A stretch of DNA of 64,000 nucleotides from Amphiscolops sp. MND2022. Lineage: Eukaryota. Shown here piece after piece: positions 3,952 to 64,000 of this stretch (within the stretch, counting starts at the first letter, position 1; the number at the start of each line of letters is the position of its first letter). Made by a program: the position numbers and the translations under genes. The stretch spans positions 56,546,001 to 56,610,000 of the forward strand of contig OZ076409.1 of the NCBI GenBank assembly GCA_964187785.1, read 5' to 3'. Under the pieces are notes generated by a model. The model saw only the letters and a program-made list of their open reading frames with translations, made no database searches and had not been told where the DNA came from.

Positions 3952-5249
3952 TTATTCTCCGCCCATATTTCATATGGGAAAGGAAAATATTTAAATCAAA
4001 CGGGTTTTTTTTACAAAATTTGCCAAGAATTATTGTTTACGTAATATGAAGAAGTACATTCACAGAATTCAACTGACATAAATTTAGTTCCATGCGATAT
4101 GTATTTGTAACGATTTTTGGACTTTTTTGGGAATGACGGAAATGACCCCATAATGACCCAAAAATGACCCCGAAAATGACAAAAATTCAAAACTTTCCCA
4201 ATTTTCACCGTTTTCATGCATTTTTTGCCATTTTTTCGATAAACATCGTCAATTAGAATGTTGAAAACGTTCAACAAGGCACGAATTCGTTGTCCAATAG
4301 TATTCTGAAGAGATAAATGCGGTTTTTTAAAAGAAAAATTACCAAAAAAATGACAAAAATTCCAAAATTTTTCGACTTTTAACGTTTTAATGCAATTTTT
4401 GTCATTTTTTCGATAAACATCGTGGATTAGAATGTTGAAAACGTTCAACAAGGCACGAATTCGTTGTCCAATAGTATTCTGAAGAGATAAGTGCGGTTTT
4501 TTAAAAGAAAAATTACCAAAAAAATGACAAAAATTCCAAAATTTTTCGACTTTTAACGTTTTAATGCAATTTTTGTCATTTTTTCGATAAACATCGTGGA
4601 TTAGAATGTTGAAAACGTTCAACAAGGCACGAATTCGTTGTCCAATAGTATTCTGAAGAGATAAATGCGGTTTTTTAAAAGAAAAATTACCAAAAAATGA
4701 CAAAAATTCCAAAATTTTTCGACTTTTAACGTTTTAATGCAATTTTTGTCATTTTTTCGATAAACATCGTGGATTAGAATGTTGAAAACGTTCAACAAGG
4801 CACGAATTCGTTGTCCAATAGTATTCTGAAGAGATAAGTGCGGTTTTTTAAAAGAAAAATTACCAAAAAAATGATTTTAAAATTCCAAAATTTTTCGATT
4901 TTTAACGTTTTTATGCAATTTTTGTCAAATTTTCGATAGACTTCGTGGATTAGAATGTTGAAAACGCTTAACGTGACAGGAATGGCAGGAATTCGTTGTC
5001 CAGTATGCTTTTCCGAAGAGATAATGACTGTTTTCTAAATGAAAAATATATCAAATTGAAACCGAAAATGACAAAAAACCCAAAATTTTCCAATTTTCAA
5101 AGTTTTTTATGCAATTTTTGTCAAATTTTCGACAGACTTCGTAGATTGGAATGTTGAAAAGAGTCAACAAGGAACAAATTTGTTGTCCAGTAGTCTTTTT
5201 CGAAGAGATTTGGGGCGGAAAATATCCCGCTGGTCCGCGGGCGTCTTGT
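3952..5249 (+). mobile_element. Helentron/HINE (DINE-1-like) non-autonomous element, family A, copy 1
   Basis: 5' subTIR TATTCTCCGCCC and 3' subTIR GGGCGGAAAATA, then GC stem-loop CCCGCtggtccGCGGG and terminal CTTGT; internal tandem array; the same ends recur at 53070-55471 and the same 5' end at 56796. Confidence 0.75.
4170..5210. repeat. ~174-bp tandem array (~6 units; the central ones nearly identical)
   Basis: AAGGCACGAATTCG recurs at 4276, 4450, 4624 and 4797. Confidence 0.95.
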
Positions 5250-14908: not shown

Positions 14909-15094
14909 TGTTGTATTCTGATATCTCTATTGAAAACGCTGTATAAAATAACGAGGTTTTTTCTAGCTCAGTTTGTATCGTAATGAAGTCGAGCTTTAAT
15001 TATAGAACTAAATGTATGTTGGTAAATACAAACATAAAATGGCAACGGATTGTTTATCGTGTTTATCAACAGGTTTCATTTCTGTTATTCTTCA
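14909..15094 (-). repeat. 3' LTR of the Gypsy element
   Basis: 186 bp; 8 substitutions versus 20702-20887 by manual comparison (~96% identity). Confidence 0.97.
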
Positions 15095-15103
15095 TTTCGC
15101 CCT
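15095..15103 (-). promoter_or_regulatory. Polypurine tract (AGGGCGAAA) of the Gypsy element
   Basis: Purine-rich run immediately before the 3' LTR on the minus strand. Confidence 0.65.
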
Positions 15104-18100
15104 ATGTGATTGGATGAGAGCTATCCAATTGGGTTTCGTTGCCGTCTAGGTTGTTGCTGTGATCGGTATCCCGTCCACGTCTTGTCGTCGTTGTATCCGG
15201 GTTTCCTAGATTCGGATTGTTGGTTTTCCGTGACTGGTTTGTTTGTGGTTGTGAGCGGATTATTGGTTTTCCTCGCTGTCCCGCTGCAGCATCTCTTCTG
15301 ATGTCTCCAGTTGTAGTGACAGGTTTAGTCGTTCTGCGGCGTTTCCTGTAATCAGATTGGTTAACTGGGTTATTTAGTCTAATAACCGGGTTCGTTTTTG
15401 TTAGGCGTTTTGACCGGCGTAGGCTAATTTCTTGTAAGTTTTCTGTTTCCTTATCAATTTCAGTGCTAGAGCTAAGGTTACTTGCTAAATCTAGGTCTGA
15501 GTCAGTAGTGTTAAATACCTTACCGTTTGTGTCTTTAATGTGTAGTTCTTGCCCTGAATGTTGAGTGTCGTTGATGATCTGTTCTATGTCGGATTCCGAC
15601 ATTTGTTCGGCGTTGATGGTGAGGGGCCCCATTGTTTTATTTTTGTTTGTTCCCGGTTGTTTCTCCGGTGAAGCTGGTTGTTCCCTGTTTCTTATCAATT
15701 TTGGCTTTCCTCTACCAATTGTTCCGTGTTTTCGATTGCTTGTCGGTTCTGGGCTGGTGTCCCATTGCTCTTCCTCTGATTGAAATGGTTCGGGGGTGAC
15801 TGGTGTTTTGTCTTCTTTGCGGGCGAATCGTCCATCCGGCCCTCTTGGTCCGGTTCCTCTGTTGGAAGGTTCCTGTTCGAATGGTGTAATTGGTTTACTG
15901 ATTAGTTTACGGTGAATGATTTTATTATCAGCCGTAGTTACGGTATGGTCTGTTCCTTTTATGGCAGTTTGTAATTGGTCGGAGAATGGGCTTTCAAATT
16001 TTGATTTTGAAATTTTTCTGTTCAAAAAATTGAAACGGGTATTTACTAACTGTCTTTGTTGATTTTCTCTTTTGCTTCAAAGGTAGATGGTCGGAACTAC
16101 TGCCTTCTCCGCTGAATGTGTAAATCTGTAGGGTTTCTGATTTTGCTGAAACGGAATAGTTATTCGTTAGTTTTTTAATTTCTTTTAGTTTTAGCATATT
16201 GCTCAGGTCCGTATTCGGTTCTCTACCGAAGTGTAGTTCAAATGCCGATTTTTTTATTCTAGTATGTGGGGTTGTTCGCATTACTCCTAGTGCCAAGTCA
16301 AGCGGTTTTCCGAAAGGTTCGCCCGCCTTGATGTTAGTTAGAAGGTTTTCTTTTAGCGTTCTCACCCCTCGTTCTACTAGACCGGTGGGGGTGTGAATGT
16401 ACGGTGTAATTATAGTGAGATATAATTCTTTTTGCAGAACTCTCTAAAGTAGTGACCCGTGAACGCTGACGATTTATTGGTTGGTATCGTTTTTGGTATT
16501 CCGTTTAACTGAATATATTGTTGAAGAATATTTACCGCCGTTTTTCCGTCTGTTGATTTAAATAGACTGGCTGCCGGCCATTTGCTATACCGGTCCATGG
16601 AGAGTAGAATGTAAACTCTACGGTTCTCTTCCGTGATTGGTCCGATGAAATCCAATTGGATTACTTCGTTCGGTGAACTTAATGGTGGTAAATGATTTTT
16701 TTCTGTTTCAGGTATATCTCTTTTAGGATTCTTACCGGAGAGTTTACACGGTATGCAGCTGTCACATTTTCTTTGTATCGCTTCTGTGATTTTCGGCCAC
16801 CAGAAGTGTTTTGCCGCCATTGTCATCTTGTTTATGGTGGGGTGGCCCTTGTGAAGAAGTGTGATGACAGTTGTCCTTAGGTTTGCAGGGACGATAATTT
16901 TCTCCTCAAAGAATACCAGTCCGTATCTTGTAGATAATTTCCGTTTGTACTGGTTGTACTCTTCTGGGATGCTGTCGAATTGTTTTCTTTCGAGGCAGAC
17001 GAGGGTTTTCAGCAGTTTTCGGTCATTACTTGTCTCCGTCATTAATAGTTGGAGATCCGTGGCGAATTCTTTTTCGGTCTCTCTGACGGTATTTTCGTGA
17101 TCCCAATTGTTTGGTTCTAATGCTTGTATCCTCGGGGCGTGTCCCATTTTGATGTATTGGGTTTCTGATCCTTGTATATTTTGACACTTTTTATTCCGAG
17201 GTAGTTAGCCCAGTTCATTGTGGGTACTTCCAGTACCGACGGTGCCATTTCCGAGTCACTGGAAATTTCTCCTTCTTCCATCGGTGTTTCGTCCGGTGTA
17301 TGGCTTGTTGTCGGACGTGTTGATGAGGTGCCGGCCCTGTTGATTTCTTGAGGAATGAATCCTCCTTGGTAGTTTCTGGTTTCTTTGAATTGCCAGTCAG
17401 GGAAGTAATTGGTTTGCTGTTGTTGATTTCTGATCTCTACGGCTGGTCTTTCCAGTCGTATGATTATTTCCATTAACTTCTCTTCGATAACTCTTCTCTC
17501 ATTTCGGAGGACTTTTGGCTCATGGTATTTCTTCCATTTGCCGTTCGATAGTCGGTAAATTCCCGGCTTTACTATCTTTCGCCATCTTTCAGTAGGATTT
17601 GCCGTCTCTTGGGACGAATCAATTCTCTCAAGGTTATCGATTGTTTTGGCGTCCATCGTCAGTAAATTTACGTCGCTATGTGAAATGCGATTAAGGCTGT
17701 GAATGGCGTTTTGTTTGCGTGTGTTGTCCAATAACCGGTATTTGTTTGCTTTTGTCAAGTTTGCTGCTCCGCTCGTTGGATGTGATTGGTTGAAATGGTT
17801 GCTAAGGCAACCGAATTTTGAAACAAATCCGTAGTGAGGTGTTACGCTGTTTATAACGTATTCTTCGTCGTATACGTCATCGTTTTGCGCCGGTGCGGTA
17901 GGATTTCTACTCAAGTAATCGGTAAGCGCTAGATGTTTTCCAGCGATATGGTTCACATTTACTGTAAAGTGTGCTAGGCGATCGAGTCAGCGCGTTAAAC
18001 GCGCACTGTATGTTTTGTTGGATCGGTTGCGCTTTTTTAGTGGTTCTAGGGCTTGATGATCCGTCAATCATTTGACGGGTTTTCCATAGATGTATAAGCG

Positions 18101-20657
18101 GAAATGTTCTTAGCCCCAGACAACCGCTAATAATTCCAACTCGTTTATTGCGTATTTTTTTTTCTGGGTCCGATAGAAATCTGCTTGCGAATGCTATCGG
18201 TTTCAAGTCTCCGTTGTCTTGTTCTTGCCAGAGAGTTGCGCCTAGGCCTTTTGTACTGGCGTCTGTTGTTATAGTGTTCGGTCAAACGGAGCTATAATGA
18301 GCGAGACACGGTATTTCCGTGATTTTGCGTTTTAACTGGTTAAATGCTTCGGAGTGTTCCGTTGTCCAGTTCCAGTTGTTTTTCTTTTTTAATAACTGTC
18401 TCAATGAGTCTGTCTGTGCTGACAGATTTTCAATGTATTTTGACCAATACTAGATTGCGCCTAAGAAGGATTTGAGTTCCTTCTAGTTTTTTGGTTCTTT
18501 TAATTCTTGTAATGCTTTCAGTTTGTCTTGCAACGGTCTAATACCGTTTTGATCACTTTTATGACCTATCCACTCTATTTCGGATTTGAAAAACTCTGAT
18601 TTATTCTCACTGAGTCTATAACCTGCGTTTTCTAGTTTATTTAGTACATCGGTTAACTCACGTTTGTGTTGTTCTTTTGTCCCTTTTGTGACAATAAGTA
18701 TGTCGTCTAGCCACGCCGGATGTTTGTTCTCCAGTGTTTGGTCGATCTTTTCTTGAAAAATGGTCGGGGTGTCCGCCAATCCGTAAAATCCTCTTTTGAA
18801 TCTTTCTGTAGTATCCGGTGAAGTTAGCCCCAGTTATTGCGAATATACATAGGTCCATTGGGTGTTTTGATAGCTGCATTTGGCCGTATGCATAATCCAG
18901 ATCCAGTTTTGATATCCAGATTAGGTCGGTTTCTCCGTCTGCTATTTTTCTTGATATTCGGGATATCACCTCCTCAGCATTTGGCATTTGTGCGTTTCTT
19001 TTCACGGTTTTTTCGTTTAATTTCCGTGAGTCTAAGGCAATTTTAACCGTTTTTTCTTTCTTAACGGTAATTACTGCTGGGCTTACGAAACAATTTTCGT
19101 CTATATTTGTTGCTCTTTCTATATGCCCGTTTTCCTTCAGCTTCTCTATTTCTCTACCGACTGCTGGCTGTAAATGTATCGGTATTGGTCGGCCTTTCTG
19201 TTGTATCAGCTTTGCATCCGGTTTCAGCTGAATGTCTACCTCTACTCCCTTTACCGTTTTATTTTCATGGAATAGCTTTGTAACCTTTCTTTTCAGCTCT
19301 GTTACGTCCGGATTTTCTTGGATGTTTTGTATTTTCAGGTTAGATTTTTCTGTATCTAATTTGATTCCCAATTGGTTCATCCAGTCCAGGCCGAGTAGTG
19401 GATTTGTTCTTTTTGTTGTTATTAGTAGTTCTAAGTTTTTTGTTTCTCCATTGATTTCTACTTTCGCCATGGTTTTTCCTTCGAACTTTATTTTGTTGTT
19501 GTTGACATTCCTGTATTCCGTAATTAATGGCTGTATTGGTGTTATTTGGTTAAATAATTGATTTGGTACCAGTGTGACCGGTGATCCACTATCAATTATA
19601 AGTTTGATTGGTCGCTTATTAACCGATGCTGTTGTAGTGAAGAATGGTTGTCCGTCTTTGGGGTTCTGTTTTGTTGAATGGACAGTTCTTGTGATGAGAT
19701 GTATTTTGTTTGGTGACCATTCGTCTTTTTCTGCGCTGGATGCCTCCGATTCCGGGTGGATGTGTTTTATTTTCCAGTCCGTCTTTTTTTGGTTCAACAG
19801 AGTTTCGCGTAGTGACCGATTTTGCCGCAATTTAAACATTTTTTTGTTTTTGCCGGACAATCGTGAAGTTTGCTCCAATTCGGTGCACCACATCTGATAC
19901 AGTCGACTTTTCTGAATTTGTTTGACTTTTCTTTTTACGGTTTTTGATAGTTTCGTTTTCTATCCACATGTTTTATTTTGGTTTCTTCTTCTGAATCTCG
20001 TGATTCGTTCATTTTTTCGTACATGTATTCGTGGATTGAGTCGGTAATTGCTTCCACCGACATGTCTCCTTTTTTGATTTTCTTTTTAAGTTCGGTATCT
20101 CCGGTTCATTTTCCGATGGCCGAGAGAAATTTTGATGCTAACAGTTCTGCTGCTGTTATTTCTTCGAATTCGCAGTTTTTTCTATCTCCAGAATTCGGTT
20201 CCAAATTTCGGCTGCCGTTTCTCCTGGTTATCTTTTCAGGTTGAAAAAATCGGCTCTGCTATGGTGTTTATTCCGTTCCGGAATAAAATGTAGCCTGAAT
20301 AGTGCCTATAGACGGTATAATGGTACGGAAGTTGATTTCTTTTCTCTTACCGTCTTCGTCATTTCTGTTAATGCTGACTGTCCAATCGCCCAGATGAAGA
20401 CGTCTTTTATTTCTTCTTCTAGTTGGTCTCTGTATTGTGGCAACACTTCTTTGGAGTTTGTCATTTTTGATAGGTCCAACTCTCGGGTCATTTTTATGTA
20501 TTGGACGAACTTTCTGCACCAGAGTTATGCACTGGTGTGATCATTTTTCTCCAAGATCGGAATGGGTAACTTTTGTATAGTCGTCCGTTCAACCGATCGT
20601 GTGGTAGCATGAGCGGTTGCTCGTTTCTCCTATGGAGTTGTTTTGTTCTTCTTCCAT
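15102..20657 (-). pseudogene. Gypsy gag-pol, disrupted by several stops and frameshifts
   Basis: Gag double knuckle CIRCGAPNWSKLHDCPA...CLNCGKIGHYAKLC; protease IIDSGSP; RT LDLDYAY...WLDD; RNase H TTDAS...PIAFASRFLS...YLSRNP; integrase HKGH...CDSCIPC, QLDFIGP, VERGVRTLK. Confidence 0.93.
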
Positions 20658-20688
20658 TGTGGTGAAGATTTTTCTGATAGTTCAGAAT

Positions 20689-20701
20689 GTTGACTGCGCC
20701 A
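20689..20701 (-). promoter_or_regulatory. Primer-binding site TGGCGCAGTCAAC (tRNA-Ser-like)
   Basis: Directly follows the 5' LTR; complementary to the ...GACTGCG-CCA 3' end of invertebrate tRNA-Ser (recalled, not searched). Confidence 0.75.
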
Positions 20702-20887
20702 TGTTGTATTCTGATATCTCTATTGAAAATGCTGTGTAAAATAACGATGTTTTTTCTAGCTCAGTTTGTATCGTAATGAAATCGAGCTTTAAATATAGAA
20801 CTAAATGTATGTTGATAAACACAAACATAAAATGGCAACGGATTGTTTATCGTGTTTATCAACAGGTTTCCTTTCTGTTATTCTTCA
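20702..20887 (-). repeat. 5' LTR of the Gypsy element
   Basis: Direct repeat of 14909-15094. Confidence 0.97.
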
Positions 20888-53069: not shown

Positions 53070-55471
53070 TAATTTTTTCTGTCCATATTTCATATGGAAA
53101 AGGAAAACATTTAAGTGAAACGTTTTTTTTCTACAAAATTTGCCAAGCACCAAATTTATATCCAAGCTAAAGGGTTTCAACCATAGAATTCAACTGACGT
53201 AAAAGTAGTATCATGCGGTATGTATTTTTAGAGACTTTTGGACTTTTTTGGTTGCCCCAAAGACCCCGGAATGACCCAAAAATAACACCAAAAAAAAGCA
53301 ACATTTTCCATTTTTTAACGTTTTCAGGCAATTTTTGTCAAATAATCAATAGATTTCGTGGCTTAGAGCGTTGAAAACGTTCGAAAGAGAGATTTTGTTA
53401 TCCAAGAACCTTAAATTGACAAAATTTTCGAAAAATTCAGTTTTCTAACGTTTTATTGCAATTTTTGTCTACTTTTCGAAAGACTTGGAGGCTTAAAATG
53501 TTGAACGCGTTTAAGAAGGAAAAAATTCGTTGTCCGGGAGAATTGTGGTCCGAAATAAAGACAGTTCTACAGTGCTACAATGACACTAAAATCGTGAAAA
53601 CAACCATTTTTTTTTACAATTTAGTTTCCAACTCAAATTTTGTAAAAGTTATAACGTGTTCATAGATTAGAACTCTGAAACTGTTCACCAACAACAAAAT
53701 GCGCCGGTTTCTGATAAAAGTGTGCTTTAATTTGACACCAAAGTTGTCAAAAAGTCCAAAAAATTCCAGTTTGTGTAGATTCTTCACGTTGTTTGAGTAC
53801 AAACTTTGAGAATTTTTGTAAGTTCGAAGTTTCGAAACAATCAGAACCGAAAGCATCGGGTATGTATTGTCCTTTTTCGATGCGAAATTTCTGGTGTTTC
53901 TTACCACAAAAACTTCAAAACGACCCAAGTGAGTAGGAAAGCAAAAAGATTGAAATTTCAAACGTTTTTGTGCAATGTCTGTGAACTTTCCGAAAGTTCC
54001 TACGGTTAGAATTATAAAATGGTTCAACAACAAATGCAGTTGATATCCAGTTGGCTTTTGTGGGAGACTCTTGGTGATTTGTGTTTGGAAAAGTTCTCAA
54101 TATGAACGGAAGAGAGCATAAAAAATCGAATTGTTTTTCACGATTTAATTGTTTGTGAAAGTTTTCGTGAACTAGATGGTTCTAAAGCTTTTTTGGGGGA
54201 ATTTCGTAAATTTCGTATATTAGATGAATGAAAACATTAAACAGCAAACAATCTTTGAAAAAAGTAAAGTCAATTGCAGTTTCATGTACGAGAAGAGACT
54301 CAAAATGACATTTTTCGACATTTTAACGCAATTTTTGCTCAAACGTTTAAAATTTTCATAATTTAGAACTTCGAAACGTTTCATCAACATTCGAATAAGA
54401 AGTCTAGTAGGCTTTTCGAAAAAGTAATTACAAGTTCTCATAAGAAAGGTGCCTCAATTTCACCCCAAAAAATCGAAAACTAAAATCTATCCATTTTGTC
54501 AATTTTCCTGCGATTTGTGTACAAATCTAGAGAAGTTTTGTGGCTAAAGAAGGTTCAAAACACTCGAATCTGGACAAACGGACTACGCAGTTTCTATTTT
54601 GAAGTGAGAGTTGCAGTATTTTAATCAAAAACAATTCAAAAAAGACCCTGATGATTCGAAATTGAAAAAATTCAAATTCAAGGTTTCTTATGCAAAGTCC
54701 TTAGTTTTTTGAGAAGTTTCCATTGTTGGAAGAATGAGAATATCAACAGCGATCAAATGGGTTACGTTATCCAGTAGGCTTTTTGGAGGTCAATTGAATT
54801 GCAGTTTCACGTTAGTAACGGGACTCAAAATGACCGCAAAATAGTGAAAAAAAAACAAGTTTTGGCAGTTTAACAAATCAGTGAATTTTAAATGAAAGTT
54901 ACCAAAGTTTCGCATTCGAAGTATTTAAGTTTTTTAAATTGGCTTGCAAAATGTTGAAAAAATAGAAATTTACAATTTTGTAGGAAAAAAGTTTGTCAGA
55001 ACGACTTGAAAAAAGTAAAAAAAAAACTTTTTTTTGTTTTTGAATTAATTATTTATCTTTTGTAAACCTTTCGAGCAATTTTCTCATTCGAGAATGACTG
55101 GACCCGGTTTCCAACAGGCCTTTTTAAAAAAACGTCTGGGTTGTTCTGGTAAATATCCTTAAATGACCGCAATGTTGTCAAAAAAGCACATTTTTTCAAG
55201 TTTTGAAATTTTTGGCGACTTCGCTCAAAATTATAAAAACGTTTTGGTGTTCACACAACCTGACGAAAAAAAGGTGAAAAATAGGTGTTTAGTGAGTTCT
55301 TGAAGTGTTTTCTTCTGATATGGGATGACCTTATTCAGAAAGTGTCAAAACTTTTTCATCAACTTTTTCTATGCGTTTTCATAGTGCAATAGCTACTGTT
55401 GAGCCTCAAAAATATGTCATTGCTAAAACAGTTTGGACGGAGAATATCCTGCTGGTCAGCGGGCGTCTTGT
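53070..55471 (+). mobile_element. HINE family A, copy 2 (old, with long degenerate array)
   Basis: 5' end CCATATTTCATATGGAAAAGGAAAA; 3' end GGACGGAGAATATCCTGCTGGTCAGCGGGCGTCTTGT matches 5213-5249. Confidence 0.75.
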
Positions 55472-55889: not shown

Positions 55890-57399
55890 AACTGATAAAC
55901 AAGAACTTATCATACGTGCAGCGACCGTTCAAAACATCTAAGTTACATTTTTGGAAGCCACTATTTAAGTGTCATTTTCACGAACATGATCTAAAGGTCT
56001 CAAATGTGCTAAGAAAATTAACATCATGATTGCACTTACTGCCAAGTTATCCGATGTGACAAAAATCTTGAATACTGTTCAAAAGTTGATTTTGCAACTG
56101 TCACCAAAAAGTTAAAATGACCAGAGCTTTTGTGTCCTGGTACCTAGTGTTTTCTAAGTGCAGGACCGAAACGAAGTGTCGGTAACAATAACTCCTAATT
56201 CAAAGTCAAGTTTTCAAAAAAAGGAATATCAAGAGAATCCGAGGAGGCCAAAATACCTGAGAAAAAACTCAAATACCGCTATGAGTTTTGAAGCTTCCAA
56301 ATGTTATCATGATTTGGACTATTACGAACTTGGATTTGATGGTCGCTAAACATTGTCCATTTTTTTAGCTACAAAACTACTACAAGTAGAATCATCTAGC
56401 AACTAAACGAGACTTCATTGATTGCCGGGACCGAGTACGACCACTAGATAGAAAGACACTGGTAATAAATTCGCAATATATTGGCACAATGATTCTGCAT
56501 GATTCTGCAGAGTGATAGAAAAGTTTATAGCCCCTGAGACAATGGAAGTGCCATTGGTATTCGTTCAGCCTTTTTTATGCGCAATTTATTACCTTTTTCG
56601 TGCTTAAGTATTTGATACGCTTGAGACTCTTGGAGTCGGTAAGTCGAACAAAACCTAGAAACTTCCACTTTGTTCCACTCCCAAGTGCAAGGTTTATTTG
56701 CCAATAATTCAAATATACAAACTATATTTAATATGATTCGAAGTCGTCTTTATTTCCTCTCTGTTTCTAAAAATGTGCTGGCATGCCATTGATTGTTATT
56801 TTCCGTCCATATTTCACATGGAAAAGGAAAATATTTAAATCAAACGGTTTTTTTTACAAAATTGGCCAGGAATTAGATTATATCCTAGCTAAAGGGTTTC
56901 ACCCATAGAATTCAACTGATGTAAAATTAGTATCATGCGGTATGTATTTGTCGAAATTTTTGGACATTTTCATTTGACCCCAAAGACCCCAGAATGACAC
57001 AAAAATGACCCCAAAAATAGTAAAAACTGCAAAATTTTCAATTTTATGCAGTTTCTGTCAAATTATCGATGAATTTCCTGGCATTGAATGTTGAAATTGT
57101 TATCGAAGAGGCTTTTTCAAAGAAATAAATGCAAATTTTTAATGAAAATGCCTCAAATTTAGACCCAAAATGACAAAAATACTCCAAAATTCAGAATTTT
57201 CAAATATTTATGCAATTTTTGTTTATTTTTCGAAAAACTTAGTGGCTTAGAATGTCAAAGACGTTCAAAAAGGAACAAATTAGTTGTCGTGGTTGCTTCT
57301 TGTAATAGATAAAAGCAATTGGTGTTGAAAAATGCATCAAATTCTGACCGAAATTGACAAAAACACAAAAAAAATCAAATTTTTAAAGTTTTATGGAGT

Positions 57400-57588
57400 T
57401 GTTCAATACTTTTGAAAATTATTGATGATTCATTTCCTTATTTTGCACATGAAATATCTAAAGTTGATTTAACCCGCGTATTTATTAGTCATTGGTGTTG
57501 GAACTTTCAGGAAGTAAAGTTAAATGATTAAATTATAGTTTCTTTTACAAAGAACTAAGCTAGTACAGATCTGTTTTGCTGCTGTACA
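57400..57588 (+). repeat. 5' LTR of the BEL/Pao element
   Basis: 188/189 identical to 63682-63870 by manual comparison. Confidence 0.98.
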
Positions 57589-57590
57589 TT

Positions 57591-57606
57591 TGGTCCCAGC
57601 CGAGAA
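57591..57606 (+). promoter_or_regulatory. Putative primer-binding site TGGTCCCAGCCGAGAA
   Basis: TGG begins 2 nt after the 5' LTR; cognate tRNA not identified. Confidence 0.6.
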
Positions 57607-57699
57607 AAAACGAACCAGGAAAGATTGGAAACGAAGGGAGCGGACATTCTGCAATTCCTAGTTTCACGCAAAAAACTGTTAGTTTGTTCCAATTTTCTG

Positions 57700-58314
57700 A
57701 TGATACACATCGTGGGAGCAAGTTGTCTCAGTCGCGCCTTTGGTCAGCTAGACAAAAAGCAAAAAACGTCTCTTACCAGTAAAATTACTGCAATTCCTTC
57801 TTTGTCCTTAAACCCAAACGTCAATTTTCAATTGAAATCTTTGCAATTTTTACTGAATAATGGCTCGTTAGGGAGCAAAAACAATCTTGTTTTGTGGCAC
57901 GATATTATCAATGACTCCTTGACAAAACACAAGTCGAACGGGTATACAGCTTTACACCCCAAAGCTTTGGTGGAAATACTTGAAAGCAATAAAAGTCGGA
58001 TCTCTGCAATTCTTTACTGTCATAGAACAGGAGCCCCCGATATCTTTAGCACTCTGCGACAAATTGACATCCCCATTATTAGAGTTACAAAAAATCTTGT
58101 TTCGAAGAAAAAGCAGCAGTGTGTTTCGCTTTTATTGGAATACAGTAAAATTCATCCCCATTATTATCTTGAGTTGAAATCTTTGTCCATTGTCCTGCGA
58201 TATAGTCGTAACTTGCAAGCTTTATCCAAAAATACTCGACGCGATAACAGGAAACTATCCCAGCGTAAAAGACGCTTGTTAAAGAAAAGAAACCGTTTAC
58301 GAAGTGTACACTAA
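57700..58314 (+). CDS. Accessory ORF (204 aa), SGNH/GDSL hydrolase-like with basic C-terminal tail
   Basis: Intact ATG-TAA ORF (frame open from at least 57625). Motifs HIVGASCL, AIPSLS, LVLWHDIINDSL and SKIHP occur in SGNH block I/II/III/V order; tail RRDNRKLSQRKRRLLKKRNRLRS. Confidence 0.7.
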   Translation: MIHIVGASCLSRAFGQLDKKQKTSLTSKITAIPSLSLNPNVNFQLKSLQFLLNNGSLGSKNNLVLWHDIINDSLTKHKSNGYTALHPKALVEILESNKSRISAILYCHRTGAPDIFSTLRQIDIPIIRVTKNLVSKKKQQCVSLLLEYSKIHPHYYLELKSLSIVLRYSRNLQALSKNTRRDNRKLSQRKRRLLKKRNRLRSVH

Positions 58315-58465
58315 ACACGAAGACAGATGTTAGTTTCTTGATGGTGTAGTGTTGTCTCTAGACATTAATTTGTCACTGGCCTATCTGCTTCCGTCAATAC
58401 AACTAACTAAACTTTCAGTTTGATCACAGTTAGTCATTGCTGAACTTTTGTAGCAACAATTAAGC

Positions 58466-61400
58466 ATGTCTGAAGAACCTAAACAAGATGTCGAGAAACT
58501 CATACGAGTTCGTGGTGGACATGGAGCTGCGTTTACGCGTCTGGAAAGAAAATTAGATGAATTTTTTGCTCATCCAATAGATGATTCTGAACGATTATGT
58601 GAAGCCGAAGCCCTATTGAGTACATTAAAAAACAAGTCATCAGACATTCATCGTTGGGATCGTGAAATAGAATTATTTATTGAAGACGAAAACGAACTTC
58701 TCGCTGAAATGGAGACGACTACTGATTTCGATCATAACGCTAGCATCACGGTAGCTAGACTGTCAGCTCTAATTAGCAACTATCACAAGTCCTTGGAAAG
58801 CATCAATAATCCTCCCCGTTATGAATCTTCCGGTCGCAATACGAGTAAACTCAAATTACCCAAATTGGAACTACCAACTTTTACAGGCTCCTACACGGAT
58901 TGGATGTCCTTCATTGATTTGTTCCGGGCATCTGTAGATTCCAACTCACAGTTGACCAATTCTGAAAAATTGAATTACCTCCGTGCTTGTTTGAAAGGTG
59001 ACGCGGCAAAATTGATCAGCTCCATCACTATAACAGATGCCAATTATACTATTGCAATGCAATTGTTGCAGGAACGTTACGAAAATAAACGTAGCATTGT
59101 TCAAGCACATTTGCAAATAAGTTGGTCGCAACCTTCAATGAAAATGGAGTCATCAACCGGCCTGCGAAAAATCTTGGAAACTACAAATGAGCACCTCAGA
59201 GCTTTGGCTGAATTGGGTCAACCCGTTGAACACTGGGATTCCTTTTTAGTTTTTTGGCTTACCGACAAAATGGATATTGAGTCAAGGAAGCAATGGCAAC
59301 TAGATCACCCAGGAACTGATTTACTCACCTGGGCAGAACCAGCAAAGTTTCTTGATACAAGAAGTCGGGCACTTGAAACTGGTTCTATTGTTCACAAAAG
59401 CATTCCGAATAGCACAAATCAGCCTCCTTGGAAGGAAAAAAGAATACAGTCGTATTCTGTGGTTACTTGTTCTGATTGCGATCCCGAGCACAAACTACAT
59501 GCATGCCCCGAATTCAAGAAACTGTCTGTTAGGGAACGCTTTCAGATTGCTAAAAGCAAACAAGTTTGTTTCAATTGCTTACAACAAGGACATAACGCTA
59601 ACTCTTGTTCTTCCAAATTCAAATGTCGTGAATGTAAACAAAAGCATCACACGCTTCTCCATTGGCCACAACAAACTGTTTCCGACTCACCGAAGTCTTC
59701 AAAGAAAAAGGAAAATGATTGGACTCGAGGTGATCAGATGAATACAATGACAAATAACCATTGTAGTGCTCAAGTTCCTCCTGTTTCTGTTCTTCTAGCA
59801 ACCGCTTTAGTGTCTATTCGAGATTCTAAAGGAAATCCAGTTCAACTGCGCGCTATGCTGGATTCCGGATCCCAAGCCAGTTTCATCACCAGTGATAAAG
59901 CTCGTGCACTGATGTTGGCTATGAAAAAGACAAGCACTACGTTGACACCACTCGGTGCTGGTACCACGCAAAGAGTCAATCAGTTGCTAGCCACAAAGCT
60001 CAACGACTCAATTGATGTTAATATGTTTATCTTACCAAAGATAACAAACCACATTCCATCACATGAAATCGACATTTCACAAATGCGGCATATTCGAAAT
60101 TTAAATATGGCCGACCCCCAATTCAACGTGCCTAGCACTATTGATGTTTTGCTTGGAGCAGACGTCGTTGAAGAAGTCATGGTGGACAACCGTATTAAAG
60201 ATAACGGTGTTTACCTGCGGGAATCAATATTTGGTTGGATTGTGTCTGGTCCAATCAAAACGACGACAGCTGAAGTCAATTACTTTTCTTGTCATGTTAT
60301 CACGACACCGACCACTGATTCCCTTCTAAGTAAGTTTTGGGCGCTAGAAGAAGTCCCTGCACGCAAACTGCTAACTCTTGAAGAAACCCAATGTGAGGAA
60401 CATTTTTTGTCCACAACAAAACGCAATCACGAAGGTCGATTTGTCGTTCGAATGCCTTTCAAGGGAGGAGAGTTCAAACTAGGTTTGAGCAAAAACCTTG
60501 CTATGCGACGGTTTTTAAACTTGGAAAGAAAATTGAAACGTGATCCCGAGTTGCAAAAAAGGTACTCAGACTTCATAACCGAGTTTATTGACTTAGGACA
60601 CATGAAGAAAGTGCCAAATAGCGAACTGAATAACTCTCAGAACTTTTATCTTCCTCATCATTGCGTGTTCAAGGAAGACAGTTCCACAACAAAACTGCGA
60701 GTTGTTTTTGATGCAAGTGCAAAAACAACAAGTGGTTTCTCTTTGAATGATTGCCTAAGGGTAGGCCCTAAACTTCAAGATGATTTATTCGATATTCTTA
60801 TTCGATTCCGATTTTTCAAGGTAGCGATGTCCGCAGACGTAGCTAAAATGTATCGTCAAGTCGAATTACAGAAATGTGATCGAGATTTTCATCGTATCCT
60901 CTGGCGATTCTCAGGCAAAAAGGAAATTGAGACATTTAGAATGACCCGCGTAACCAATGGTGTGGCTAGTTCATCTTTTCATTCCATTCGATCTTTATCA
61001 GAATGTGGAAACTTTGAAACAACTCCCAAAGAGGTCAAAGAAGCACTTCAACGTGATTTTTACGTCGATGATATTTTGACTGGCGCTAGTTCTGCATCGA
61101 AGGCAAAGGAACTTCAAACTGGTCTAATTTTTACTCTGAAGCAGGCTCAATTTGATTTGAGGAAATAGACGAGTAGTGATCCAGAACTTGTTCTGAGTCT
61201 CCCACCTGAGTACAGGGAGGCAAACGAAAACTTCAAATTTCTAGACGAAGAACACACAATAAAGACATTAGGAATTGTTTGGAACCCTTCGTCGGATAAG
61301 TTTCGCTTCACTATTTCGAAATCGAATTCCTTGAAGGCAGAATCAATCACCAAACACCAAATGCTGAGTGATATTGCTCAAACATTTGACCCTCTTGGTT

Positions 61401-63635
61401 GGTTAACACCGGTCATAATTTCCCTGAAATGCCTGATGCAGAAAGCTTGGATTGCAAAACTAGATTGGGATCAAATATTGCCTGTTGACCTATCACGGGA
61501 ATACGTGGATTGGCGAGAACGACTCGGTTGCATTGAAATGATCGAATTGGATAGATTCGTTCTGAAAAAGGATCAATTGGATATTTTTGACCTCCATGTA
61601 TTTTGTGACGCTTCGGAACTCGGCTATGCAGCTTGTGTCTTCGTAGTTTCGCAGAACAACGGTGAGCGAAGGTCATCTTTACTTGTCGCAAAGTCAAAAA
61701 AAGGCCCCGATAAAATCAAAAACCATTCCTCGTTTGGAGCTTTGTGCTGCTCTACTTGGATGTAGACTTTTATCATCAGTGATTAAATCGTTACAAAAAA
61801 TGGAATTAAATGTTGACAAGACATTCGCGTGGACGGATTCTACTATTGTTCTCAGTTGGCTGAACCGAGAAGCAAGTAATTGGTCTACATTTGTTGCTAA
61901 TAGAGTAGCAGAAATTCAGGAAAGTAGTAATTTGAGATGGAACCATGTACTTTCTCATGAAAATCCTGCGGATTGTGCATCCCGGGGAGTAGACCCTTCC
62001 AGTCTGAAACAATTAAGTTTATGGTGGCAAGGCCCTGAGTGGTTGATCACCGGCGCACTTCCGAAGAAATTGGAATTACCTACCACGAAAGAGGAACTGA
62101 AACGAAAAGTTTTGGTTAATGTGTCTCAAGTTGCAGAATCTGAAGATATTATTGATTTATCAGCACAACGTTCCTTGAGAAAGGCTCTCAGAATTGTTGC
62201 TTATGTCAAGAGGTTTATCTCCATCTGCAAATATAAAACCAGTTATCCTAACTTCATTACAGCCAGCGAGCTAACTGAAGCCATGAGCAATCTCCTCATA
62301 CAGGAACAGAAAAAATTCTACTCTGATGAAATAAATACGCTTCAAACTAGTTCACAAGTAAAAAAGTCGAGTAAAATTCAATTGCTGTATCCTTTCCTGA
62401 ACGATGGAGTTCTCTGCGTTGGAGGACGCTTAGCTAATGGTAAATTCAACGATGAAGCGAAATATCAACGCCTCGTTTCGCAACAAAGCAATTTAGCTAG
62501 CCTTATTCTCCTGGATTCTCACCATGCTACATTGCATGCTGGGCTAAATCAAGTTTTGGTTCTTTTCAGAACTAAATACTGGATTCCTAGTTGTAGAAAC
62601 CTGATACGAAAAATAGTTAGAAATTGTGTGTCGTGCTGTCGCTTTCAAACCAGAGCCAATAATCCTCTGATGGGTGATTTGCCAAAGGAAAGAATAGATG
62701 TTCCACTTCGAGCTTTTCAAGATATTGGCATTGACTTTGGAGGACCGTTTTTGTGTAAAACAGGTGGCTCGAAGGAGGCTAAAGTTTATATGGCACTTTT
62801 CATTTGTTTTGCTAGCCGTGCTGTGCATTTGGAGTTAGTGTCCGATTTGAGTTCACAAGCCTTCATTGCTGCACTACGAAGATTTGTTTCTCGCCGAGGC
62901 TGTCCTAAGAGGATATTTAGCGATAACGGGACAAACTTCACTGGAGCGCAAGCAGAGCTGAAAGAACTACTTGTAGCCGATCATAGCGATTCCTTGCAGG
63001 CTTATTTAGCAGGATTGTCAGTTGTTTGGACGTTCATTCCTCCCAGGGCTCCCCATTTCGGTGGCTTGTGGGAAGCGGCCATAAAAAGCGCTAAAAAGCA
63101 CCTGCGACGTGTCATGGGCAAATGTGTCCTAAACTATGAAGAACTGGAGACACTTTTCTGTCAGATTGAAATGGTCTTGAATTCTCGCCCCATCAGTTTT
63201 CTGAGTGATGATCCTAAAGATGAATTACCACTCACTCCAGCAGATTTGTGTATGGGTGCAAAGTTGGAAGCCTTGCCATCAACAGCAGAAATTAATCAGG
63301 AGGCAATCTCAGCTTCGCATTGCAATTCAAAAAAAAGATGGGCTTGTATCCAAGCAAAATTGACACATTTCTGGAAGCGATGGAGTAAAGAGTACGTCGC
63401 TAGTCTCCAGGAAAGAAGCAAATGGAGGAATGAAGTCCCCAATATAAAACTTGGAGATTTAGTGTACATTACTGATGATAATGTTCCACCTCTACAATGG
63501 CCACTAGGACGTGTCAAGCAACTTTACGTTGGGCGAGATTCCCTTGTGAGGGTTGTTAAAGTAAAGACAGGAAGTGGAGAATATAATCGAGCCGTTCATA
63601 AACTGAGGAAACTTCCACTGCCTGTCACCGACTGA
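58466..63635 (+). pseudogene. BEL/Pao gag-pol polyprotein with one nonsense codon (61166-61168) and one +1 frameshift (A7 at 61696-61702)
   Basis: KLPKLELPTFTG (DUF1759-type gag); three Cys/His knuckles ending CRECKQKHHTLLH; protease MLDSGS; RT YLPHH, LRVVFDAS, ADVAKMY, YVDD; RNase H FCDAS, TIPRLEL; integrase IDFGGP, SDNGTNF, GGLWEAA; C-terminal FWKRW...WPLGRV. Confidence 0.95.
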
Positions 63636-63656
63636 CTCGAAATTCAGTTGATTTGC

Positions 63657-63681
63657 GTAGAGGAAATCAAGACGGGCGATA
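63657..63681 (+). promoter_or_regulatory. Polypurine-tract region of the BEL/Pao element
   Basis: GTAGAGGAAATCAAGACGGGCGATA immediately before the 3' LTR. Confidence 0.55.
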
Positions 63682-63870
63682 TGTTCAATACTTTTGAAAA
63701 TTATTGATGATTCATTTCCTTATTTTGCACATGAAATATCTAAAGTTGATTTAACCCGCGTATTTATTAGTCATTGGTGTTGGAACTTTCAGGAAGTAAA
63801 GTTAAATGATTAAATTATAGTTTCTTTTACAAAGAACTAAGCTAGTACAGATCTGTTTTCCTGCTGTACA
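63682..63870 (+). repeat. 3' LTR of the BEL/Pao element
   Basis: Direct repeat of 57400-57588. Confidence 0.98.
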
Positions 63871-64000
63871 GGAGTTTTTGTGTAATTTTGGAAAACCTTG
63901 GTGACTTAGTCATTTCAAAGACGTTCAACAAGGATCAAATTGTTTGTCAGGAAGGCTTTTTTTAGGGAAATGAACGAAGTTTTGTAATGAAAAAACGCAC

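Follow-up and report, generated by a model that had tools for sequence, protein, structure and literature searches.

Between the 5' long terminal repeat (LTR) and gag of a BEL/Pao retrotransposon from Amphiscolops sp. MND2022 lies ORF0, an accessory gene that is conserved and whose product is predicted to adopt an SGNH hydrolase fold. The window analysed here is the whole 64,000-nt stretch of contig OZ076409.1 that contains this element, and L-numbers are labels of fetched loci. The position of ORF0 inside the element and its co-travel with copies of BEL elements and long interspersed nuclear elements (LINEs) are direct observations. In the reading that we tentatively favour, at a probability of about 45%, the gene was likely exchanged between elements together with a downstream RNA hairpin, and its likely product is an unusual Ser-His hydrolase of esters with a basic tail that would bind element RNA.

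57700-58314, + strand: ORF0, 204 aa, without internal stop; ATG 111 nt past the 5' LTR, stop 151 nt ahead of the gag ATG
ORF0 residues 1-174: predicted SGNH domain; key residues Ser8, His67, Asp68, Asn71, His77, Tyr106, Arg109, His152, Glu158

ORF0 protein and predicted fold

The open reading frame (ORF) is intronless and ends in a basic tail, with 14 Lys/Arg among the last 28 residues and an overall isoelectric point of 10.7. An earlier note on this DNA (the original prediction) had described an uninterrupted 204-codon frame within the LTRs, and both the frame and every motif it quoted are present. Its proposal of an SGNH fold with Ser and His kept agrees with our models, which predict a flavodoxin-like SGNH fold and place Ser8 and His152 in SGNH register. 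The block I Ser (S8) is kept in 255/272 homologues and the block V His (H152) in 277/286, putting both among the best-kept residues of a family at ~30% identity.

The remaining blocks diverge from the reading first given. Loss of the block II Gly, taken as a family trait, is confined to the window's BEL sub-lineage, where Ser replaces it (7/20 BEL and 0/17 LINE representatives); 254 of 285 homologues keep the Gly. The block III region of the family reads W-H-D-x-x-N-N, without the Gly of GxND, and offers two adjacent Asn as candidates for the oxyanion hole. The Asp that had suggested an "ND" is private to the window copy, the position being N in 275/290 homologues and 19/20 BEL representatives. 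The block V Asp of DxxH is absent as claimed, position 149 being K, S, R or A. Three of four Helitron-linked members have an Asp two residues ahead of the His, and among SGNH structures the acid is Asp in only 23/30.

The ORF0 family and its carriers

Searching the same genome with ORF0 gave at least 150 matches among those listed and 3169 first-look candidates, so ORF0 is not a chance ORF. A profile search returned 963 clusters at E 0.001 or better, and members sampled from 10 of them carried no name. Forty own-genome matches were chosen to span subfamilies, and 9 kb around each was examined: 22 lie in BEL elements, 16 ahead of ORF1 in LINEs with APE and reverse transcriptase (RT), and 2 are unassigned. 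The BEL carriers form three lineages, and the RT of the first shares ~32% identity with that of the other two. The LINE carriers were tentatively put in the CR1 group from their APE and RT, a PHD-bearing ORF1 in some, and microsatellite tails; in dispersed copies ORF0, ORF1 and ORF2 recur as one ~5.4-kb unit at 99%. ORF0 is a separate ORF in all elements of known context. Longer forms with the esterase fused within ORF1p were searched for and none was found, which is weak evidence.

Among 18 metagenome loci, ORF0 precedes an APE+RT LINE in two, a PHD ORF in two and a BEL gag in one, and follows GIY-YIG or PIF1 frames in two; the remainder are short or unassigned. The GIY-YIG- and PIF1-linked loci led to a distant ORF0 branch in the own genome, where ORF0 lies ~1 kb after RepHel-GIY-YIG genes (L169, L174, L178) or 1.7 kb before one (L170). 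ORF0 also lies ~1 kb after RepHel in L165 and L167; for all five downstream loci the link is adjacency only, not a place inside mapped Helitron ends. The RepHel of L199 has a Helitron_like_N domain as well as a PIF1 domain. As judged from homology and neighbourhood, the family is thus common to three BEL lineages, LINEs and Helitron-like elements of one genome. The proposed search for ORF0 with other transposon classes therefore succeeded, and the idea of capture by this one BEL lineage gives way to a gene that also occurs in two other BEL lineages, LINEs and Helitron-like elements and appears to have been exchanged.

Several carrier loci have features of their own. Long RepHel ORFs (>2,300 aa; L199, L202, L204, L206, L169) end in a C-terminal GIY-YIG, have unnamed ORFs nearby and, by eye, begin with an OTU-like N-terminal stretch. 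A divergent multicopy ORF0 subfamily (L180, L184, L185) has no recognised neighbours within 1.5 kb. In the second BEL lineage (L042, L044, L119), ~480-540 residues precede DUF1759, versus 139 in the window element. Tandem 1.25-kb units in L085, L100 and L101 each consist of the leader described below, the 5' untranslated region and ORF0 of one LINE family.

Selection and probable exchange between elements

ORF0 is under purifying selection between subfamilies, in LTR and LINE carriers alike. dN/dS was computed by NG86 for 40 between-subfamily pairs (58-90% identity), which are not independent of one another; 16 were saturated at silent sites, and the 17 with dS >0.255 gave 0.04-0.24, in line with the selection on the protein for which the original prediction proposed this check. 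Within families the ratio is 0.20-0.85, and values near 1 among young copies are accounted for by the decay expected after insertion.

The ORF0 tree, built from 20 BEL and 17 LINE sequences (L048-L050, L126 and L128 left out), conflicts with the tree of the host elements. BEL monophyly is rejected (approximately unbiased test, p 0.0023), and the second BEL lineage, one clade by integrase, is split by ORF0 (p 0.0013). Repeated exchange of ORF0 between element lineages is the simplest reading of these sequence trees. It is likely, then, that unrelated mobile elements pass around one helper gene.

Hairpin and other non-coding signals

58341..58394, + strand: predicted RNA hairpin in the ORF0-gag spacer; 6-nt loop at 58365-58370, plus internal loops; the sole model match in the window, this copy being in the training set
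57677..57690, + strand: 14-nt non-coding motif, 9 nt ahead of the ORF0 ATG; the 1.05 Mb of fetched loci contain 88 matches, and the window has one

Past the ORF0 stop codon lies a hairpin signal that travels with ORF0 in BEL and LINE elements. It lies 30-120 nt past the stop in 11/15 BEL and 12/14 LINE representatives, is often doubled, and occurs 0 times on the opposite strand, ahead of ORF0 or within it; it was found in 0/6 Helitron-linked or unassigned loci. The four inner pairs are present by the way the hairpins were picked, and the two lower pairs, which played no part in that choice, hold in 23/25. Over 410,573 bases, a covariance model returned 35 matches with E of 1 or below, 34 of them downstream of ORF0 on the same strand; many fall in near copies of training rows, and some in one untrained family. 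Rfam gave no match to the hairpin. One locus (L126:1354-6509) has an intact ORF0 followed by tandem repeats with 8 hairpin-model matches and no pol gene, and is perhaps a non-autonomous derivative or decoy array.

The 14-nt motif is common to two BEL families (the window's and one other) and to LINEs of four families; the ORF0s of these other families share only ~36-52% identity with that of the window. A further ~31-nt leader opens full-length LINE copies of unrelated families, 40-220 nt ahead of ORF0 (L035, L036, L037, L040, L041, L045, L111, L112, L123-L125 and sister loci), and matches the published acoel spliced leader (10.1101/2022.08.27.505549). It is present in 14/17 LINE and 0/20 BEL representatives, with alternative AG join sites and unique flanks. 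At the 5' ends of LINE retrocopies it records trans-splicing of LINE RNA, and hence a host that trans-splices and is likely an acoel. Limited tests turned up no leader-joined spacer copies.

The element in the window

57400-63870, + strand: full-length BEL/Pao element with LTR pair, target-site duplication and gag-pol domains
57395..57399 and 63871-63875, + strand: left and right copies of the 5-bp target-site duplication
57400..57588, + strand: 5' LTR, 189 bp, TG..CA ends, 1 mismatch against the 3' LTR
57591..57603, + strand: stretch resembling a primer-binding site (PBS) in sequence, beginning TGG, 2 nt past the 5' LTR
58466..61168, + strand: gag-pol part 1 (DUF1759 gag, zinc knuckles, aspartic protease, RT), terminating at a premature stop
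61169..63635, + strand: pol remainder (RNase H region, frameshift near 61700, integrase with H2C2, rve and DUF5641)
63660..63681, + strand: purine-rich tract ahead of the 3' LTR, by sequence
63682..63870, + strand: 3' LTR, 189 bp, 1 mismatch against the 5' LTR

The LTR pair, target-site duplication, PBS, polypurine tract (PPT) and domain order identify the element as a BEL/Pao LTR retrotransposon. Gag, protease, RT, RNase H and lastly integrase follow in that order from the gag ATG at 58466, with BEL-type domains (DUF1759 E 5e-36; DUF5641 E 2e-32; Peptidase_A17 E 4e-50 in the related BEL locus L032). ORF0 is integral to the element, as first supposed: five full-length sister insertions, each with its own target-site duplication, all carry it at the same position with the frame open, and the PBS-like stretch is identically placed in 5/5. 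Sister copies thus upheld the original prediction in part, since ORF0 is broken in 3 further close copies (3/9 at >=80% identity). The two gag-pol lesions it reported are confirmed (stop at 61166-61168, frameshift near 61700), and gag-pol is broken in all six full-length copies. Its argument from an ORF intact beside a broken gag-pol is weak: ORF0 spans 0.6 kb versus ~5.2 kb, and with three of nine close copies broken its intactness is no evidence in itself.

The element is inserted into one copy of a 174-bp tandem repeat, which occurs with related single copies at window positions 4150-5050, 53100-53570, 56820-57395 and 63912-63964. A decayed Gypsy-like LTR element at 14909-20887 (- strand) has repeats of 186 bp that agree at 96%, frames that look by eye like protease/RT and integrase, and zero hairpin-model matches.

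Proposed function and alternatives

The esterase of ZfL2-1 is described as a slow enzyme that binds phospholipids, and an arginine-rich motif is suggested there as the part that contacts structured RNA (PMC3905857). The C-terminal basic motif of ORF0, the neighbouring conserved hairpin and the ZfL2-1 parallel together lead us to favour, tentatively, a Ser-His hydrolase tethered to element RNA. As first cistron, ORF0 would be the most easily translated from a capped RNA. Its Arg/Lys tail might dock on the spacer hairpin, after the ZfL2-1 arginine-rich motif (PMC3905857), so that the hydrolase domain would ride on the ribonucleoprotein (RNP) or particle, where it could remove acyl or acetyl groups or bind membranes, thereby helping the RNP to get into the germline or to survive there. 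For gag-pol or ORF1, translation would rely on re-initiation across the short spacer or on a shorter RNA, and ORF0 could pass between elements via template switching during reverse transcription.

Several results weigh against this account. The Ser8/His152 register was taken from alignment end points, not coordinates, and structural comparisons stand at root-mean-square deviations of 3.2-4 A. There is no block V acid, and in the window's sub-lineage the block II Gly is missing too. Two of the proposed checks were negative: Foldseek alone gave zero matches at E 0.001 or better, and 0/104 members had an SGNH Pfam model among the 25 families listed. Seven between-subfamily pairs with lower dS gave dN/dS of 0.44-2.16, and the highest within-family value, 0.85, belongs to the window's own family. 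Exchanging ten near-duplicates for ten distant rows leaves the tree backbone mostly open, with BEL monophyly still rejected (p 0.00055). The hairpin rule was written post hoc, after inspection of these sequences, and matched 1/11 metagenome loci; the covariance model missed nearly all metagenome loci as well as L114, L116, L122, L046, L121, L182 and L183. The hairpin is present in 0/5 Helitron-linked ORF0s, which means that the protein is able to persist in its absence. The isolated ZfL2-1 esterase is also described as not binding oligo-A RNA, and ZfL2-1 ORF1p as dispensable in HeLa assays (PMC3905857).

The main alternative, itself rather unlikely, has ORF0 working in trans as an enzyme against a barrier that the host sets to every transposon, such as silencing or germline access, with an unrelated hairpin serving expression of the downstream cistron through re-initiation or spliced-leader trans-splicing. 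ORF0 beside RepHel of a DNA transposon, where the hairpin is missing, speaks for it, as do LINE spacers of 22-148 nt without an ATG in 16 of 17 listed cases and a host that trans-splices, with the acoel leader opening most LINE representatives. By contrast, 42 matches to the stretch from ORF0 end through spacer to ORF1 of one LINE family show no pile-up of copy starts in the spacer, and there is no known host target. By analogy, ORF0 and hairpin might instead form a plug-in protein-RNA module on an esterase fold, like Rev/RRE or lambda N/boxB, which any retroelement of this trans-splicing host could acquire at its 5' end to mark and protect its full-length RNA, the same enzyme serving DNA transposons. 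We think this improbable; if true, it would reveal a single barrier in the host that LTR, LINE and rolling-circle elements all face.

Slightly more improbable again is a scaffold for RNA or lipid binding that has no catalytic activity, in the manner of Oskar's OSK domain: OSK lacks the triad, whereas few positions in the ORF0 family are kept as well as Ser8 and His152, and active SGNH enzymes outrank OSK. A neutral passenger or separate nested insertion has almost nothing to recommend it beyond the dN/dS of 0.85 and the broken close copies in the window's family, since ORF0 keeps its place in all five sisters and in BEL families at ~50% identity, at least 22 of the 30 best RT matches have a listed ORF0 match ~2.9 kb upstream, and the between-subfamily dN/dS of 0.04-0.24 refutes it, barring alignment artefacts.

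Significance

A gene before gag is a genome plan absent from the Belpaoviridae listing, and three-ORF LINEs are a further addition. The finding is wider than the original prediction held, and less unprecedented. What makes transposons capture SGNH esterases again and again is a standing question: in cell culture ZfL2-1 ORF1p can be dispensed with, and no selection was detected on the rotifer ORFs discussed below. Here, within one genome, a single family of small, separate ORFs without introns is subject to purifying selection in its LTR and LINE carriers and has a distant branch next to Helitrons, a distribution that points to a need common to different transposition mechanisms. ORF0 and its hairpin also provide a compact protein with a candidate RNA ligand, and the family amounts to about a thousand clusters invisible to Pfam.

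Comparison with known systems

The window element resembles described Belpaoviridae and BEL/Pao elements in its LTRs, PBS, PPT, gag-PR-RT-RH-IN order, DUF1759, Peptidase_A17 and DUF5641 (PMC8742986, PMC3118150). Unlike it, the family profile of the International Committee on Taxonomy of Viruses gives gag, pol and env only, with no ORF 5' of gag (PMC8742986), and the words "esterase" and "hydrolase" have 0 occurrences in the main text of PMC3118150. In the full-text literature searched, no BEL/Pao element had an SGNH gene, and an esterase ORF standing by itself before gag or ORF1 did not occur; since that literature did not include Repbase Reports, most journals behind subscription or any supplements, a database may already have an entry.

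Contrary to the novelty that the original prediction implied, LTR elements with an SGNH gene have a precedent: Vesta elements of bdelloid rotifers have a GDSL gene, ORF3, in common with Athena Penelope-like elements. Like ORF0, it is a stand-alone SGNH ORF common to unrelated retroelement classes. Unlike ORF0, it lies 3' of pol, its invariant residues are intact and detected by HHpred, and no departure from neutrality was found, whereas ORF0 is under purifying selection; the clades named are Juno, Vesta, TelKA and Mag, not BEL/Pao, and no RNA element is mentioned in the parts consulted (all PMC5408684).

SGNH genes are also described in fish Helitrons (texim, PMC4021074) and amphibian Ngaro tyrosine-recombinase retroelements (PMC9210276), and GIY-YIG in one Helitron family (PMC11417382). 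Texim has introns and homologues labelled Lipase_GDSL2 (PMC4021074), whereas ORF0 is intronless and matched by no Pfam model; the Ngaro SGNH ORF lies after the recombinase (PMC9210276). The OSK domain shares with ORF0 the SGNH fold, basic character and proposed RNA binding; OSK lacks the triad, whereas ORF0 keeps Ser and His.

SGNH domains are also described in CR1/L2/RTEX ORF1p and Penelope (PMC3905857, PMC13343379). Searches with ORF0 returned zero sequence or structure matches to 4C1B. The ZfL2-1 esterase, unlike ORF0, forms the C-terminal domain of ORF1p, follows a coiled coil and has the complete Ser-Asp-His triad (PMC3905857); ORF0 is separate, stands before gag or before an ORF1 with its own PHD or coiled coil, carries its basic motif C-terminally and lacks the Asp. 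By its spacing, H67 is a candidate counterpart of H191, which with S228 makes up the transposon-specific His and Ser of CR1/L2 ORF1p esterases. Like that ORF1p esterase, ORF0 brings an SGNH fold with Ser and His into a retrotransposon 5' of pol, with a His four residues ahead of the block III Asn and an arginine-rich motif (PMC3905857).
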